Part shown: piece by piece, positions 1,705-30,927 of the stretch
Numbering within the stretch: the first letter of the stretch is position 1
Layout of the letters: the number at the start of each line of letters is the position of its first letter
Assembly: GCA_008080745.1 (NCBI GenBank)
Contig: SHMX01000008.1
Location: forward strand, 30,001 to 62,000
DNA: 32,000 nucleotides
Origin: Candidatus Thorarchaeota archaeon
GTDB taxonomy: Archaea > Asgardarchaeota > Thorarchaeia > Thorarchaeales > Thorarchaeaceae
Direction of reading: 5' to 3'
The notes under the pieces: model-generated
What the model was told of the DNA's origin: nothing
What the model saw: only the letters and a program-made list of their open reading frames with translations
Databases searched by the model: none
Program-made: the position numbers and the translations under genes

Positions 1705-1728
1705 TGAAAATTTAAGAAAACTGAGTGC

Positions 1729-1833
1729 TCAGGTTGCTTCCAACGCGAGCACTTCACTGAAAGTGAGTTCACCACTCTTGCTAGAGTCCTGGTGTGTGGG
1801 AGTCGATTGCTTATCTTGAACGCTGGAGTTCAT
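1729..1833 (-). CDS. Micro-ORF 3, 34 aa, acidic (MNSSVQDKQSTPTHQDSSKSGELTFSEVLALEAT)
   Basis: ATG is preceded by GGAGATGA plus TCTCA, the same junction geometry as sORF2. The stop is followed by a CTGAG-ca-CTCAG palindrome and a T-rich tract on the minus strand. I recognise no homolog. Confidence 0.55.
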   Translation of the reverse strand: MNSSVQDKQSTPTHQDSSKSGELTFSEVLALEAT

Positions 1834-1838
1834 TGAGA

Positions 1839-1922
1839 TCATCTCCTGAAGTAAGCGTGGGTGATAGCCTTGGTCGAGGGGGACTTGGTGTCCTTGATGA
1901 TCTTGGTCTTGGATACTGCCAT
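1839..1922 (-). CDS. Micro-ORF 2, 27 aa, basic (MAVSKTKIIKDTKSPSTKAITHAYFRR)
   Basis: Hand translation. SD-like GGAGGTAA then TCTCA before the ATG. Shares STKA-x-x-[YH]AY with sORF1. All 5 Lys codons are AAG and all 3 Ile codons are ATC. Confidence 0.7.
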   Translation of the reverse strand: MAVSKTKIIKDTKSPSTKAITHAYFRR

Positions 1923-1927
1923 TGAGA

Positions 1928-2032
1928 TTACCTCCAGTATGTGTAAGCATAGGACAGAGCCTTGGTGCTCTGAGTCTTACGGGTGTTGTTCTTCTTCTCG
2001 GATTCAGTTCGGGAGTTCTTTGCAAACGCCAT
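1928..2032 (-). CDS. Micro-ORF 1, 34 aa, basic (MAFAKNSRTESEKKNNTRKTQSTKALSYAYTYWR)
   Basis: Hand translation. ATG lies 31 nt downstream of a TTATATAC TATA box, implying a near-leaderless mRNA. Paralogous C-terminus with sORF2. All 5 Lys codons are AAG and all 3 Asn codons are AAC. Confidence 0.7.
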   Translation of the reverse strand: MAFAKNSRTESEKKNNTRKTQSTKALSYAYTYWR

Positions 2033-2045
2033 GATTGTTCACAAC

Positions 2046-2071
2046 ATATACTACTCCAAGTTAGTATATAA
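2046..2071 (-). promoter_or_regulatory. Candidate TATA box (TTATATAC, 2071-2064) overlapped by an 8-bp perfect inverted repeat
   Basis: ATATACTA(2046-2053)-N8-TAGTATAT(2062-2069). The TATA position fits a transcription start near 2040, about 8 nt before the sORF1 ATG. Confidence 0.55.
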
Positions 2072-2101: not shown

Positions 2102-2120
2102 TAGTCACAAATTGTGACTA
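2102..2120. promoter_or_regulatory. Perfect 9-bp palindrome, candidate transcription-factor operator
   Basis: TAGTCACAA-a-TTGTGACTA, about 30 bp upstream of the micro-ORF TATA box. Confidence 0.5.
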
Positions 2121-2243: not shown

Positions 2244-2279
2244 GGAAAGAAAAAGGTAGGGACTGACCCTTGCCAGTCC
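2244..2279 (-). terminator. Candidate terminator downstream of rubredoxin
   Basis: Minus strand GGACTG-N8-CAGTCC stem starting at the stop codon, followed by CCTTTTTCTTTCC. Confidence 0.45.
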
Positions 2280-2437
2280 TATAGTTTCTCGAAATCCTCT
2301 TTTCCAGCCCCGCACATTGGACATACCCAATCGTCTGGTATGTCTTCAAATTTTGTACCAGGGTCGACACCATTCTCAGGATCTCCCTTGTCTTCGTCAT
2401 AAACCCAACCACATACAAGACATTCCCATTTAGCCAT
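2279..2437 (-). CDS. rub: Rubredoxin (52 aa)
   Basis: [14 protein letters not shown]...DDWVCPMCG has two CxxCG motifs and the canonical length. GGAGA SD lies upstream of the ATG at 2437, so the start is shortened from the 73-aa track ORF. Confidence 0.95.
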
Positions 2438-2600
2438 ATGTTTGTCTCCAATTGACTTATTCTGGTCCTGAATCGGACCTGTATTCTTTTCAAATCGCAT
2501 TTTCAGATAAAAGGCTTGTCTTAGAGTGAAAAAGAATGGAAAATCAAAATCTAAAAAAGAAGAAAAGGACTCACAGCAAAAGCTGCAAGTCTAAGTTATT

Positions 2601-9200: not shown

Positions 9201-10580
9201 TTACTGGGTGGCTGCAGTTATCCTAACATCTGAAACCTTAATGGATGGGATAAATGTAGGCACATATACTTCCCACCAATAGATTTGCTTTCTATCCTTT
9301 CCCATAGCTGAGATGTTCTTAAACATTCGAAGCATGTTATCACTAATTCTAATGTTCTTTATTGGCTTCATCTCTCCATTTTCTATGAAAAATGTAGCAT
9401 CTCTGGGTATTGTGGAAAACTCGCCAGTTTGATAGTTCTGCCATCGAGTATACCAATTAGATGTAACATAGATGGTTGGCTTGTCGCTCTCCAAGAGTTC
9501 TTCAAGGGTATAATCACCCTCATTGAATACAATATTGGATGAGTCGGGCAATAGCATTCTTAGACCTTGACCTAGGCCAACGAATTCTGAACTACCCGTT
9601 GTTTCTGTTTCATACATCCTTGCTGTAGATGTGTTGTGTGTGAAATGCTTGAAAATACCATTATCTATGATATCGATATTCTGAGTTGGAGTTCCCTCCA
9701 CGTCAAAACCTCTGCTTGCCATTCCTTCAGGCATATGAGGATTGTCGGAAGCAGTTACGAAATCAGGTCCAACTTGCTGTCCGATTTTATCACCCAAAGG
9801 AGACATTCCTATCAAGACGAGAAATGGATTGGCCGCTCCTGGTAGATATCCAATTACATTAGCAGCTACAGTGGGGTTCATAACTAAATCATAGGTTCCA
9901 GGCGCTCCCTGTATTGCTCCATTAGCCCTCTTTGACAATTCACCCGCTTCTCGACCAGCTTCAATCATTGCTTCTTCTGCCTTACTTGGTATCGTTCCAC
10001 AAGTAATTCCTTGTCCAGAGTAATCTAATTCATCTTGAAATGCTCGGACATTTAGGTCATAGTTGGTCTTCTTAGATAGTCCTTCAAACCCAGAGCTTGT
10101 TCTGAGAAATTGTAATTCTTTCCCAAATAGCAATGCACCAGCAACTCGTTTAGCTCCTTCTTGTAGAGCTTTATCTATTGCAGCGTTTACCATTCCAGGT
10201 GCAATCTCATGATAATCATCAATTTTGTCATCATAGATCTTCTTGGGTTCTGTATATTTCTTCACTTCTGTTTCAATACCTGCATAGAACTGAGATTCAG
10301 GCATGAGCTTGGCAAATGCTATACTATCTGCCACTAGTGATCGTACATCGTCTTCATTAGATATAGCTCTTTGACTGAAACCTGTCTTTTCGCCATCGAC
10401 CACAACAAAAAGTTCCATAGTCTGAGTTTCCCAACGTTTGAGAATATCTATCGCACTCTGAGAAAAGCGGATTTGTGAACGTGATGACATATTTGACCTT
10501 GCGATAGCTGCATCCGTTTTATCTTTAGTAAGACTGATAGCTAAATCAGCATATCTCTTTAATTCATCCTGTTTACTCAT
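9201..10580 (-). CDS. pmbA: TldD/PmbA family protein, PmbA/TldE-type non-catalytic subunit
   Basis: GTYDLVMNP, FDVEGTP, NTSTAR and IKNIRISDN family motifs, with no HExxxH. One-nt TAATG overlap with tldD. Confidence 0.85.
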   Translation of the reverse strand: MSKQDELKRYADLAISLTKDKTDAAIARSNMSSRSQIRFSQSAIDILKRWETQTMELFVVVDGEKTGFSQRAISNEDDVRSLVADSIAFAKLMPESQFYAGIETEVKKYTEPKKIYDDKIDDYHEIAPGMVNAAIDKALQEGAKRVAGALLFGKELQFLRTSSGFEGLSKKTNYDLNVRAFQDELDYSGQGITCGTIPSKAEEAMIEAGREAGELSKRANGAIQGAPGTYDLVMNPTVAANVIGYLPGAANPFLVLIGMSPLGDKIGQQVGPDFVTASDNPHMPEGMASRGFDVEGTPTQNIDIIDNGIFKHFTHNTSTARMYETETTGSSEFVGLGQGLRMLLPDSSNIVFNEGDYTLEELLESDKPTIYVTSNWYTRWQNYQTGEFSTIPRDATFFIENGEMKPIKNIRISDNMLRMFKNISAMGKDRKQIYWWEVYVPTFIPSIKVSDVRITAATQ

Positions 10581-12007
10581 TAGCCAACACCTCCAAGGCG
10601 AATATGTCTAAATCTTATTTCTGGCCCTCCTGCATTAATGGGAACACCTTGTCCAGGATCACTTTTACCGCAGGTTCCGCCCATAAGAAGATTGAACCTC
10701 TTGGAAAGTGCATCAGCTGATGTGAGTAAACCAACACTAGTTGTTTCAAGAACTGGTCTGCGCACCATCGTTTCTGTCAGTTCGCCATCCTTGATTAGAT
10801 ATGCTTCAACACCAGTATATTTGCTCTGGTAACGTCGGTCATCGATATTCCATTCACTAAAGCTTCTCATGAATACTCCCAATTTTACATCCTCAACAAG
10901 TTCTTCAAAGGAATGATCACCTGGTTCAAAGAAGGTGTTTGCCATTCTAATTATCGGTTCTCTACTAAAGGCAGATGCTCGAGCTGAGCCGTTAGATTCC
11001 ATTCCAAATCTTACACCAAACTCTCTATTCAGAAGTGGTTCATGAATTATTCCTTCTTTGATAAGATGACGTTTTCTCGCTTTCACTCCCTCATCATCAT
11101 ACATATAGAACCCAGCACTATTTGGTATAGTTGGGTCCTCTGATACAGTAATCACATCAGATGCAACTCGTGACTTTCCAATTTCTAAGTCTCTCCAGAA
11201 ACTTTCACCTGCTTGAGCTCCCTCTCGTCCCTTAATTCGGTCACCTTCACTTGGGTGACCAACATTTTCATGTGCGATGATTCCTGCTACTTCAGGTCCT
11301 ACAATCATATCAATTGGGTGTTCAAGAAGTTCCGGCAGTTTCTTTGCCTCACTAGCCGCTCGGATGAGTCTCTTTATTTCATCCTCTAATATTTCCAGCA
11401 ATTTTGCCTCTTTGATTCGTTCCCATCCACCTACTTCATTCGCGGTATACATTTTCTGCTCGCTAATTCCCTCTCGAGCTGCAGTCATGATAGCGAAAAT
11501 ATTGATTCGAGAATAATTGCTAGTAATATCCGTACCCTCGCTAGTCATGATATATTTTCGTTGTGTTATTGGAGCTATCATGAACGTGAAGCTTGCCAAA
11601 TCAGACATAATTTCAGTCATATCAGCTGCTAATTCCATAATGGTATCAGTTGAAACATCAATCAGTGGTTCTTTGACTTTAACTTCCCATTTTGCTTTCG
11701 TAGATATTGGCTCTCCCATGTCAATGGGTTCTTTCCTTTTAGCGGTCTTAGCCATTTTGAAAGCAGTCTGAATAGTATCTTCAGCGATTTCCTTATTCAT
11801 TCGGTCAAAAGAAGCAAAACCAAGATTTCCCTCAACGAGAACCCGTACTCCAATTCCTTCAGAGGGTTCCACGCCTCCTGAAACAGGCTGCCCATTTCGG
11901 TAGGCAAAACCTCGGCTTAGTTCTTGGATACACCGGGCCTCTACATATTTACAGCCGAGCTCGCGTCCGTAATCTACACAATACTCAACTAGATCCTTTG
12001 CGTCCAT
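10580..12007 (-). CDS. tldD: TldD metalloprotease subunit
   Basis: HENVGHPSEGDR zinc motif, YDDEGV, RMANTF, C-terminal CGKSDPGQ. Start MDAKDL is inferred. Confidence 0.9.
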   Translation of the reverse strand: MDAKDLVEYCVDYGRELGCKYVEARCIQELSRGFAYRNGQPVSGGVEPSEGIGVRVLVEGNLGFASFDRMNKEIAEDTIQTAFKMAKTAKRKEPIDMGEPISTKAKWEVKVKEPLIDVSTDTIMELAADMTEIMSDLASFTFMIAPITQRKYIMTSEGTDITSNYSRINIFAIMTAAREGISEQKMYTANEVGGWERIKEAKLLEILEDEIKRLIRAASEAKKLPELLEHPIDMIVGPEVAGIIAHENVGHPSEGDRIKGREGAQAGESFWRDLEIGKSRVASDVITVSEDPTIPNSAGFYMYDDEGVKARKRHLIKEGIIHEPLLNREFGVRFGMESNGSARASAFSREPIIRMANTFFEPGDHSFEELVEDVKLGVFMRSFSEWNIDDRRYQSKYTGVEAYLIKDGELTETMVRRPVLETTSVGLLTSADALSKRFNLLMGGTCGKSDPGQGVPINAGGPEIRFRHIRLGGVG

Positions 12008-12134
12008 ATTGAACACCGTTATAAATTCCATTCGACATCCTCTGTTAAAAGATTACCACTATCTCTGAAACGACAGCTAGAAGTCTTAAAATACCTGTAA
12101 CTTCTCTATTTCTTATTGTGGATTTGGTGATTGG

Positions 12135-29938: not shown

Positions 29939-30927
29939 TCAGCAATCCTCCTTCCAGTAAGTTGCAAGAACACATCATCCAAAGTCGGCTCCTTGACTTC
30001 AAAGTGCTCCACTTTAAGACCTGACTTGTCACGGAGAAAAGAAAGCAATCTGTATGCGAGATCATATCCATCCTTCGCAGTCACAACAATCTCTGAATGT
30101 CCGTTCTTTGAGGTCATACTTGCAGACATGACATCCTCAATCTGTTTTATTTGCTCAATATCTGGTAAGCCTACAATCTTCATATGTAGACTGTCGTAAT
30201 CACGTACTCCTTCTTTCAATTCATGAGGTGTACCAAAACTTTTGATTTCTCCCTTGTTTATGAGTGCAATCTTATCACATAGCATATCTGCTTCATGCAT
30301 ATAGTGTGTAGTAAGCAAGATTGTCTTGTTCTTCAATTCTTGTTTCACATACTCTCTCAAGTCCGTCGCAAAAGTAGGGTCTAGCCCTTGTGTGGGCTCA
30401 TCTAAAAGTAACACTGGTGGGTCATGAATCAACGACCGTGCAAAAACAATTTTCATTCGCATACCATGTGATAAATTCTCAGCCTTCTCATCAGCCTTAT
30501 CCGTGAGACCCATTCTGCCCAGCAGTTCGTCAGCCCTTTCCTTTGCTTCATTATGTGGCATACGATATAATTTTGCAAAGAAAATCAAATTCTCTCGAGC
30601 TGACAATTTCCAGTATATGGATCTCTCATTACCCTGACATACTCCCATCGCTGCTCTCGCATAGGCAGATTGTTGAAGCACATCATAGCCCATTACCCTT
30701 GCAGTACCAGCTGTAGGTAGAACAAGAGTTGCAATCGTCTTGATGAGGGTGGTCTTTCCTGCTCCATTGGGACCAAGAAGTCCATATACCTGTCCTTTTG
30801 GAATATCTAATGAAACGTTCTTCAGTGCTTCTACCTTCTTCTTTTCAACCGGAAATACAATAGCCCTTCTCTTCACTGAGATGTACGTCTTTGTTAGGTT
30901 TTCAATCTCAACAGTATAATCTGTCAA
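29935..30927 (-). CDS. ABC transporter ATP-binding protein (DrrA/NodI-like)
   Basis: Walker A GPNGAGKT, signature LSHGM, Walker B LLLDEP, H-loop TTH. TTG at 30927 has GGAGG upstream. Confidence 0.93.
   Translation of the reverse strand: MTDYTVEIENLTKTYISVKRRAIVFPVEKKKVEALKNVSLDIPKGQVYGLLGPNGAGKTTLIKTIATLVLPTAGTARVMGYDVLQQSAYARAAMGVCQGNERSIYWKLSARENLIFFAKLYRMPHNEAKERADELLGRMGLTDKADEKAENLSHGMRMKIVFARSLIHDPPVLLLDEPTQGLDPTFATDLREYVKQELKNKTILLTTHYMHEADMLCDKIALINKGEIKSFGTPHELKEGVRDYDSLHMKIVGLPDIEQIKQIEDVMSASMTSKNGHSEIVVTAKDGYDLAYRLLSFLRDKSGLKVEHFEVKEPTLDDVFLQLTGRRIAD

Follow-up and report, generated by a model that had tools for sequence, protein, structure and literature searches.

Within the 32,000-nt window analysed here (positions 30,001 to 62,000 of contig SHMX01000008.1 from the Candidatus Thorarchaeota archaeon assembly GCA_008080745.1), a cassette of three very short open reading frames (ORFs) is found, designated sORF1, sORF2 and sORF3. 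Sequence comparison within and between genomes indicates that sORF1 and sORF2 are real paralogous protein genes and that the C-terminal motif that they have in common is selected at the protein level. The cassette is present in several copies in the genome, is restricted to essentially one archaeal family, has its cistrons laid out for tight translational coupling and shares a palindromic operator with a bactofilin-like gene and with a transporter operon. As to its function, the explanation that we favour, giving it slightly less than an even chance, is that the cassette encodes unmodified, trans-acting basic and acidic micro-proteins which would dock through C-terminal helices, their charged tails acting on a polyanion, on a filament or on each other.

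Gene layout and protein-level conservation

The elements of the cassette, in window coordinates, are the following.

1714–2121 (408 bp), minus strand: whole cassette, with operator, promoter, three cistrons and probable terminator
2104–2118, minus strand: operator GTCACAAATTGTGAC, a perfect palindrome at the repeated cassette's 5′ edge
2064–2071, minus strand: TATA box TTATATAC, some 35 nt upstream of the ATG of sORF1
2032–1928, minus strand: sORF1, type A micro-protein of 34 amino acids (aa), net charge +6, sequence MAFAKNSRTESEKKNNTRKTQSTKALSYAYTYWR, C-terminal end TQSTKALSYAYTYWR
1943–1969, minus strand: motif STKALSYAY, sORF1 residues 22–30, predicted C-terminal helix
1922–1839, minus strand: sORF2, type B micro-protein of 27 aa, net charge +6, sequence MAVSKTKIIKDTKSPSTKAITHAYFRR, C-terminal end SPSTKAITHAYFRR
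1851–1877, minus strand: motif STKAITHAY, sORF2 residues 16–24
1833–1729, minus strand: sORF3, type C micro-protein of 34 aa, net charge −3, sequence MNSSVQDKQSTPTHQDSSKSGELTFSEVLALEAT
1707–1752, minus strand: 3′ hairpin GUGCUC..GUUG GAAG CAAC..GAGCAC, overlapping the sORF3 end, with a T-rich stretch after it

Both sORF1 and sORF2 were found where a preliminary description of this DNA had placed a common C-terminal motif (span 1839–1969, which comprises all of sORF2 and sORF1 from Ser22 on), and their endings, TQSTKALSYAYTYWR and SPSTKAITHAYFRR, bear out the likeness. The net charge of +6 that had been estimated by hand for each of them was obtained again by computation. Local alignment pairs KTQSTKALSYAY with KSPSTKAITHAY at a score of 39, which was reached by 14 of 20,000 shuffles (z = 4.8). 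The matching DNA blocks that had been reported are also present: ACCAAGGCT occurs in the window only at the two motif sites (1866–1874 and 1958–1966; chance expectation 0.17), and ATCTCAATG lies at both cistron junctions (1831–1839 and 1920–1928).

The sORF1/sORF2 junction reads GGAGGTAATCTCAATG, the sORF1 stop codon being located within the Shine–Dalgarno sequence of sORF2, while the sORF2/sORF3 junction, AGGAGATGATCTCAATG, directly precedes sORF3. The arrangements GGAGGTAA-N5-ATG and AGGAGATGA-N5-ATG were found again in every genus. The last one or two Arg codons (AGG AGG TAA, AGG AGA TGA, GTG AGG TGA) double as the Shine–Dalgarno sequence of the next cistron and, hence, the C-terminal conservation is partly a translation signal. 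The TATA box is kept in every cassette and across genera, and its position about 35 nt upstream of the ATG suggests that the first cistron has a very short leader or is leaderless. Additional TGTG(A/T)C-like half-sites follow the operator, at approximately 2090–2100 and at 2077–2082. The 3′ hairpin appears in both the minimum free energy and the centroid folds, T-runs come after it in all copies, and hairpin and T-rich stretch together are probably a terminator.

Peptides taken from 44 loci were sorted into three types. Type A, to which sORF1 belongs, follows the pattern MAL(A/T)xNxR..EKKN..QST[KEDRN]A[LIV]x[YFH]A[YF]...R (31–37 aa; 36 distinct peptides collected across genera). Type B, that of sORF2, reads MALAK....ST[KERN]A[IL]xx[AV]YFRR (22–36 aa), with S-T-x-A-[IL]-x-x-[AV]-Y-F-R-R as motif consensus. 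Type C has an acidic, variable N-terminus and the end [DE][EV][VI]LALEAT (31–40 aa); sORF3 shows this same acidic N-terminus and terminates in EVLALEAT. The A and B types share the N-terminus MALA(K/T)N across genera and can be aligned over their full length, which identifies them as ancient tandem paralogues. Together with the alignment scores, this upholds the tandem duplication that had been proposed, with a conserved C-terminus and basic tails of varying length. The core common to both types is S-T-x-A-[ILV]-x-x-[AV]-[YF]. An aromatic-x-aromatic triplet had been described for both peptides: it holds for the sORF1 type, where 31 of the 32 different coding versions carry [YFH]-A-[YF] and one has Arg in the middle, but not for the sORF2 type, whose 27 distinct coding versions begin the triplet with H, D, Y, N, E, Q, L or F. 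In type C, all 16 aligned sequences agree in their last five residues, L-x-LEAT, and the codons of the EVLALEAT tail vary synonymously.

Mean net charge across the family is +4.9 for type A, +5.7 for type B and −4.2 for type C. The grand average of hydropathy (GRAVY) ranges from −1.57 to −0.08, with a mean of about −0.7. Cys is present in only 6 of 84 distinct peptides, and none of the family peptides examined contains a Gly-Gly site or a hydrophobic stretch. Marks of Sec/Tat substrates or of leader-bearing precursors (h-region, double-glycine site) are likewise absent from them, and the resemblance to signal peptides suggested in the preliminary description finds no support in these values.

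All five paralogues of the genome encode the same sORF2 protein; over all pairs of them, the differences add up to 34 synonymous and 0 non-synonymous. The ratio of non-synonymous to synonymous differences per site (pN/pS) is 0.00–0.14 for sORF2; among the five paralogues it is 0.30 for sORF1 and 0.31 for sORF3. When the sister genome is added, the values are 0.44 for sORF1, 0.13 for sORF2 and 0.39 for sORF3. The sORF1 paralogues show a Ser-to-Ser change from TCC to AGT as well as 6-nt indels that stay in frame, and a 1-nt inter-cistron indel shifts the relative frames with both ORFs still open. At the invariant positions of the motif, between 4 and 8 different codons are used: Ser is encoded by both TCN and AGY codons, and Thr and Ala by four codons each, as counted over 32 distinct coding versions of type A and 27 of type B. 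Folding of the whole transcript is not distinctive (z = −1.54, no better than 8 of 100 shuffles), and an Rfam scan of the whole window gave no family at the gathering score. The synonymous excess, the codon diversity, the unremarkable fold and the lack of an Rfam match argue that the similarity is not an RNA-level repeat, a possibility that the preliminary description had itself raised. We give hardly any credence to the view that the cassette is an RNA- or DNA-level repeat only, with its ORFs untranslated. The promoter and the 3′ hairpin are indeed the best-conserved nucleotide stretches between genera, as that view would have it, but synonymous changes far exceed non-synonymous ones and the three frames are kept independently despite the inter-cistron indels.

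Codon usage of the cassette is strongly biased. Its G+C content at third codon positions (GC3) is 0.67, compared with 0.35 ± 0.08 for the genome, and Lys is encoded by AAG in 100% of cases. The copies cluster by genome with 100/100 support, the five of this genome on one side and the four of the sister genome on the other. Since the copy on contig C12 and the sister copy at locus L002 are positional orthologues, both convergent with Cbf5, this clustering points to concerted evolution. Codon bias and concerted evolution fit abundant products whose sequence and dose matter.

Copies, distribution and regulon

Five copies of the cassette are present in the 3.16-Mb genome, with 90–94% nucleotide identity, sharp boundaries and unrelated flanks. 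They are listed here together with the recurrent features that accompany cassettes, operators or micro-ORFs (C numbers denote contigs of this genome, labelled G000, and L numbers the loci compared).

C8 (this window); C1:659805-660213; C2:572619-573033; C2:311748-312151; C12:4339-4745: cassette copies
G000:C3:523367-523690 (L055:968-1288; also L060-L083): HTH_45 protein of 107 aa, single-copy in the genome, its gene ending a few bases before the operator
G000:C2:570877-572608 (L053:2878-4608); L004, L013, L018, L019, L050: PolX gene
L008:1700-1830; L015 (minus, ~1000-1160); L049:1600-1760; L054:1640-1760: GGTCAC-rich element

A six-frame scan with a hidden Markov model revealed a sixth, divergent A-B-C locus (G000:C2:49550-49870) with a different promoter. 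In this sixth cassette (G000:C2:49550-49950, minus strand), type A starts with TTG and ends in QKAVALYHAYVYRR, type B ends in STKAIGYSYQYR and type C in DEVLRLECT. Its promoter carries GGTTTG..CAAACC palindromes, and palindromes of the same kind stand before the second type A gene in L015 and L049 and upstream of the C4 operator site. Completeness of the genome is 98% and its stated contamination 4.8%. The long ORFs of the smallest contigs, C14–C19, have GC3 values of 0.8–0.93, versus about 0.35 elsewhere in the genome, and these contigs look like assembly contamination.

The peptide family is confined to Thorarchaeota and essentially to one family. By BLAST, the cassette was detected in 21 of the 24 further family genomes compared, and 16 genomes from outside the family gave 0 matches. 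A profile built from types A and B matched 57 of 59 family genomes, as many as 13 times in a single genome. Among 191 genomes from the rest of the phylum it matched 1, and only marginally (E = 0.007). Against 1.84 billion representative proteins, the same profile gave 44 matches, 42 of them to peptides of 29–63 aa from the same family; the other two are long trimeric-autotransporter-like proteins with a repeated QSTEAITGKQL string. The peptides of the window are themselves absent from a collection of 15 billion proteins, and their relatives in the protein collection are unnamed or labelled “hypothetical protein”. No Pfam or NCBIfam match was obtained for A, B, C or the C4 micro-ORF at E ≤ 10; profile searches of the PDB gave chance matches only (E 0.4–1.8), and ESM Atlas look-alikes of sORF1 included no usable match. 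Our literature search found nothing on this peptide family.

A search of the whole genome for the operator, allowing up to 2 mismatches and including the TATA box, located it at seven promoters only: those of the five cassettes, of a bactofilin-like gene and of an operon formed by one micro-ORF and a major facilitator superfamily (MFS) transporter gene. The bactofilin-like gene, at G000:C3:523800-525044, encodes a 414-aa bactofilin-domain protein found in 29 of 31 family genomes, and the operator precedes it in 22 of the 24 loci fetched from other genera. Directly upstream of the bactofilin operator, 20 of the 24 loci contain the gene for the HTH_45 winged-helix protein, with 69–100% amino-acid identity. 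Its position and conservation make the HTH_45 protein a candidate regulator of the micro-protein regulon.

In the MFS operon of this genome, the operator stands in front of a divergent 33-aa ORF and the C4 MFS gene. In one genus, two type A genes are immediately followed by an orthologue of the latter (66–68% identical); in three other genera, a gene of a second MFS type (MFS_1/MFS_3) comes after A-B or A genes. At locus L006, the ATG of this second type is located 5 nt past the type B stop codon, where it occupies the type C position. At the loci listed above, the stretch that separates the MFS gene from the last micro-ORF holds the conserved GGTCAC-rich element TGGTCAC..TGGTCACAG..GGGCA..TGCCC..TGTGACCA, which could form an 8–9 bp long-range stem around a small hairpin and act as a cis-regulatory RNA, or could provide extra half-sites for the same regulator.

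Other neighbours were recorded as well. A PolX gene (pol-beta thumb/palm, HHH and PHP domains) is located immediately upstream of the cassette, on the same strand, in five genera, including the C2a copy of this genome, an adjacency that may be a functional link or plain inherited synteny. In the window, the gene just upstream of the cassette (2279–2500, minus strand) encodes a rubredoxin. Translation may truly begin at an internal ATG of this ORF, as the canonical rubredoxin domain comes after the corresponding Met and 21 additional N-terminal residues stand ahead of that Met. A PmbA/TldD metallopeptidase gene pair is present at 9201–12031 (minus strand); we considered it as a linked peptide processor and discarded it, as it is 7–10 kb away from the cassette and does not lie beside the other copies. 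Between 6572 and 32000, the window also encodes three PAS histidine kinases and two small GTPases of the Ras/Arf family, the latter being in keeping with an Asgard origin.

Predicted helices and candidate functions

AlphaFold2 was run on the family alignments of types A and C. For type A, a helix is predicted at residues 23–33, on the motif (mean pLDDT about 82 for residues 21–30), together with a second, low-confidence helix at residues 8–19. For type C, a single helix is predicted at residues 25–32, on EVLALEA (mean pLDDT about 85 for residues 21–30), the remainder having no secondary structure (pLDDT about 59). The only confidently predicted helices are those on the two conserved motifs. 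Within the first of them, A, I/L, A and Y/F at positions i, i+1, i+4 and i+5 would fall on one helix face, and the preceding S-T would be a typical helix N-cap. The models have low confidence (pLDDT about 60) in the N-terminal part, which is rich in Lys, Arg, Thr and Asn, and we accordingly take this part as a largely disordered polycation. A membrane-targeting amphipathic helix was also considered and is not favoured, as hydrophobic moments are modest.

In the explanation that we favour, the motif would constitute the N-capped start and the hydrophobic face of a single short C-terminal helix. The A and B peptides would be made without leader peptide and without modification, and would act inside the cell. 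They may be cationic effectors or nucleic-acid- or ribosome-binding micro-proteins, as the preliminary description had proposed among other options. Type C would be their acidic partner, with a disordered acidic tail and the helix EVLALEAT, produced in fixed ratio with A and B because each stop codon lies inside the Shine–Dalgarno sequence of the next cistron. The three helices would dock on one another or on a common partner, leaving the work to the oppositely charged tails, which would either neutralise one another or coat a polyanion or a filament. The palindromic operator would serve as the switch common to the cassette, the bactofilin-like cytoskeletal gene and the MFS-transporter operons, with the adjacent and highly conserved HTH_45 winged-helix protein as its likely regulator.

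Several observations weigh against this explanation. The hydrophobic moments, 0.42, 0.24 and 0.16, are modest, and ten residues make a rather short helix for building a stable bundle. Of 16 genera, only 12 yielded a type C peptide, although the model used to detect it is weak. No homologue of known function was found in Pfam, NCBIfam, the PDB, the ESM Atlas or the 1.84 billion representatives. Furthermore, an MFS transporter gene follows A/B genes in five genera and replaces type C in one of them, a position that export or cis-regulation fits at least as well as an intracellular complex does.

Export is an alternative that we consider unlikely. According to it, A and B would be unmodified cationic peptides, bacteriocin- or pheromone-like, that leave the cell through the co-transcribed or co-regulated MFS protein, type C being an intracellular antidote or chaperone. 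The MFS gene is directly downstream on the same strand and under the same operator in the five genera, with its start codon 5 nt past the type B stop at L006; several paralogous peptides per operon and many copies per genome recall the loci for multi-peptide bacteriocins and phenol-soluble modulins (PSMs); and basic and acidic peptides could pair. However, these peptides are strongly hydrophilic and lack the hydrophobic or strongly amphipathic helix that known leaderless bacteriocins and PSMs have. The usual cargo of MFS proteins is small molecules rather than peptides of 3–4 kDa, most cassettes have no transporter near them, and neither an ABC exporter nor an immunity gene is adjacent. It would be a similarly long shot to see in A and B the first case of an Asgard archaeon that secretes unmodified peptides as signals or weapons, exported by a lineage-specific MFS protein that shares their operator and, in five genera, their operon, with type C as intracellular antidote and HTH_45 wiring to the bactofilin-like gene. 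Less probable still, in our view, is a cis-acting role as leader or ribosome-arrest peptides, in which the C-terminal dozen residues would sit in the exit tunnel and a stall at the stop codon would gate the third cistron, either type C or the MFS gene. Such a role is suggested by conservation that is mostly in the last ~12 residues up to the stop codon, by the location of that stop inside the next Shine–Dalgarno sequence in every genus, by A/B genes before transporter genes in five genera (in some of them with the conserved GGTCAC-rich element in between) and by a size like that of SpeFL or TnaC. On the other hand, there are five to six self-contained cassettes in which a 34-aa third gene is followed by a terminator, conservation in type A includes the N-terminus (MALATNNR..EKKN), and both the concerted evolution and the strong codon bias speak for abundant products that act in trans. 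To our knowledge, arrest peptides have no archaeal precedent.

[quoted passage not shown] We regard this as very improbable. Type A does keep its aromatic triplet, the genome does contain three SPASM radical-SAM genes (C7:95386, C15:11017 and C4:3987), and predicted RiPP gene clusters exist in Asgard archaea generally (PMC12144867). In some RiPP systems, paralogous precursors are dispersed. Nevertheless, the three SPASM genes are far from every cassette and lack the operator. Matches to P450 (PF00067) and to YcaO (PF02624) numbered 0 in this 98%-complete genome, the control genomes being positive for both. The window contains no radical SAM, P450, YcaO or LanM gene, in agreement with the preliminary description; a LanM-like family was not seen in the window or the flanks, with LanC/LanM not searched genome-wide. 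The co-location with radical SAM, P450 or peptidase genes that had been suggested as a check was not observed: among 20 flanking genes of this genome and 55 flanking ORFs of other genera, the latter represented by their 25 commonest Pfam families, no RiPP enzyme, recognition protein or leader peptidase recurs. The flanking families include rubredoxin, DinB_2, histone deacetylase, GNAT, DsbD/AhpC, DsrE, Cbf5, Tsr3, TiaS, 3HCDH, hydrolases and flavodoxin, among others. In the peptides themselves, the first aromatic position is variable in type B, Cys is almost lacking, there is no Gly-Gly, and sORF2 is conserved over its whole length, with no split into leader and core.

No known prokaryotes are closer relatives of eukaryotes than the Asgard archaea, whose small proteins are almost uncharted. 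The family described here is invisible to annotation, yet it is multicopy (5–13 gene copies per genome), homogenised, under strong purifying selection and on one switch with a cytoskeleton-like gene and transporters. Such an investment in a peptide family implies an important, lineage-defining function. As the peptides have only ~30 residues, they can be synthesized chemically, and their partners and activities can be tested directly although the organisms are uncultured. What is new is the sequence family and its regulon rather than a demonstrated mechanism.

Comparison with known peptide systems

Several resemblances were examined and dropped. The N-termini recall eL29 and SERF, a likeness for which Pfam gave no support, and the spacing does not match the consensus of PIP-box/APIM PCNA-binding motifs or of HbYX proteasome-docking tails. 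Trimeric autotransporter adhesins are the sole long proteins matched by the family profile, through the string QSTEAITGKQL. This string has the form S-T-[DE]-A-[IV] and marks, in the adhesins, the start of a coiled-coil segment. They are bacterial surface proteins of 2,000–2,655 aa, the match spans only profile positions 8–27 and the score comes through repetition (9–11 stretches). Homology was rejected, and we regard the similarity as due to chance or to a convergent helix-cap motif.

The gene layout resembles that of the leaderless bacteriocin operons of Firmicutes and of psm-alpha of Staphylococcus aureus. Aureocin A70, enterocin L50, garvicin KS and psm-alpha consist of back-to-back paralogous peptides of 20–45 aa, leaderless and without modification genes, and in some of the loci studied here a transporter gene follows too. 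Whereas those peptides are hydrophobic or strongly amphipathic and membrane-active, types A and B are hydrophilic polycations with a single helix of ~10 residues. Leaderless bacteriocins and PSMs are accompanied by ABC exporters and immunity genes; here, MFS genes are found in some loci only, the third gene encodes an acidic peptide, and no ABC exporter was seen among the flanking families. No sequence similarity to these peptides was detected.

The alpha/beta-type small acid-soluble spore proteins (SASPs) of Bacillus and Clostridium are likewise small, conserved, co-regulated products of dispersed multicopy genes with strong codon bias, and by analogy the basic members of the present family could coat nucleic acids. 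SASPs have 60–75 aa, are monocistronic and bind DNA as helix-turn-helix dimers. The peptides reported here are about half that size (22–37 aa), form a basic/basic/acidic trio and have no Pfam or NCBIfam match at the threshold given above. With the arrest or leader peptides SpeFL, TnaC and ErmCL they have in common a length of ~30 aa, conservation of the C-terminus up to the stop codon, a stop codon that abuts the next ribosome-binding site and, in some cases, a location upstream of transporter genes. They differ from them in forming stand-alone multicopy cassettes and in being conserved at the N-terminus as well.

Finally, biarylitides and cittilins (P450) and triceptides (radical SAM 3-CyFE), the RiPPs to which the peptides had initially been likened, also derive from short paralogous peptides with an aromatic-x-aromatic motif, which is seen here in type A. 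In the present case there is no P450, no adjacent or co-regulated radical-SAM gene, and the triplet is not conserved in type B. An idea that was attractive but unsupported gives way to a defined and testable helix motif: the conserved unit is the predicted helix-forming sequence S-T-x-A-[ILV]-x-x-A-[YF].

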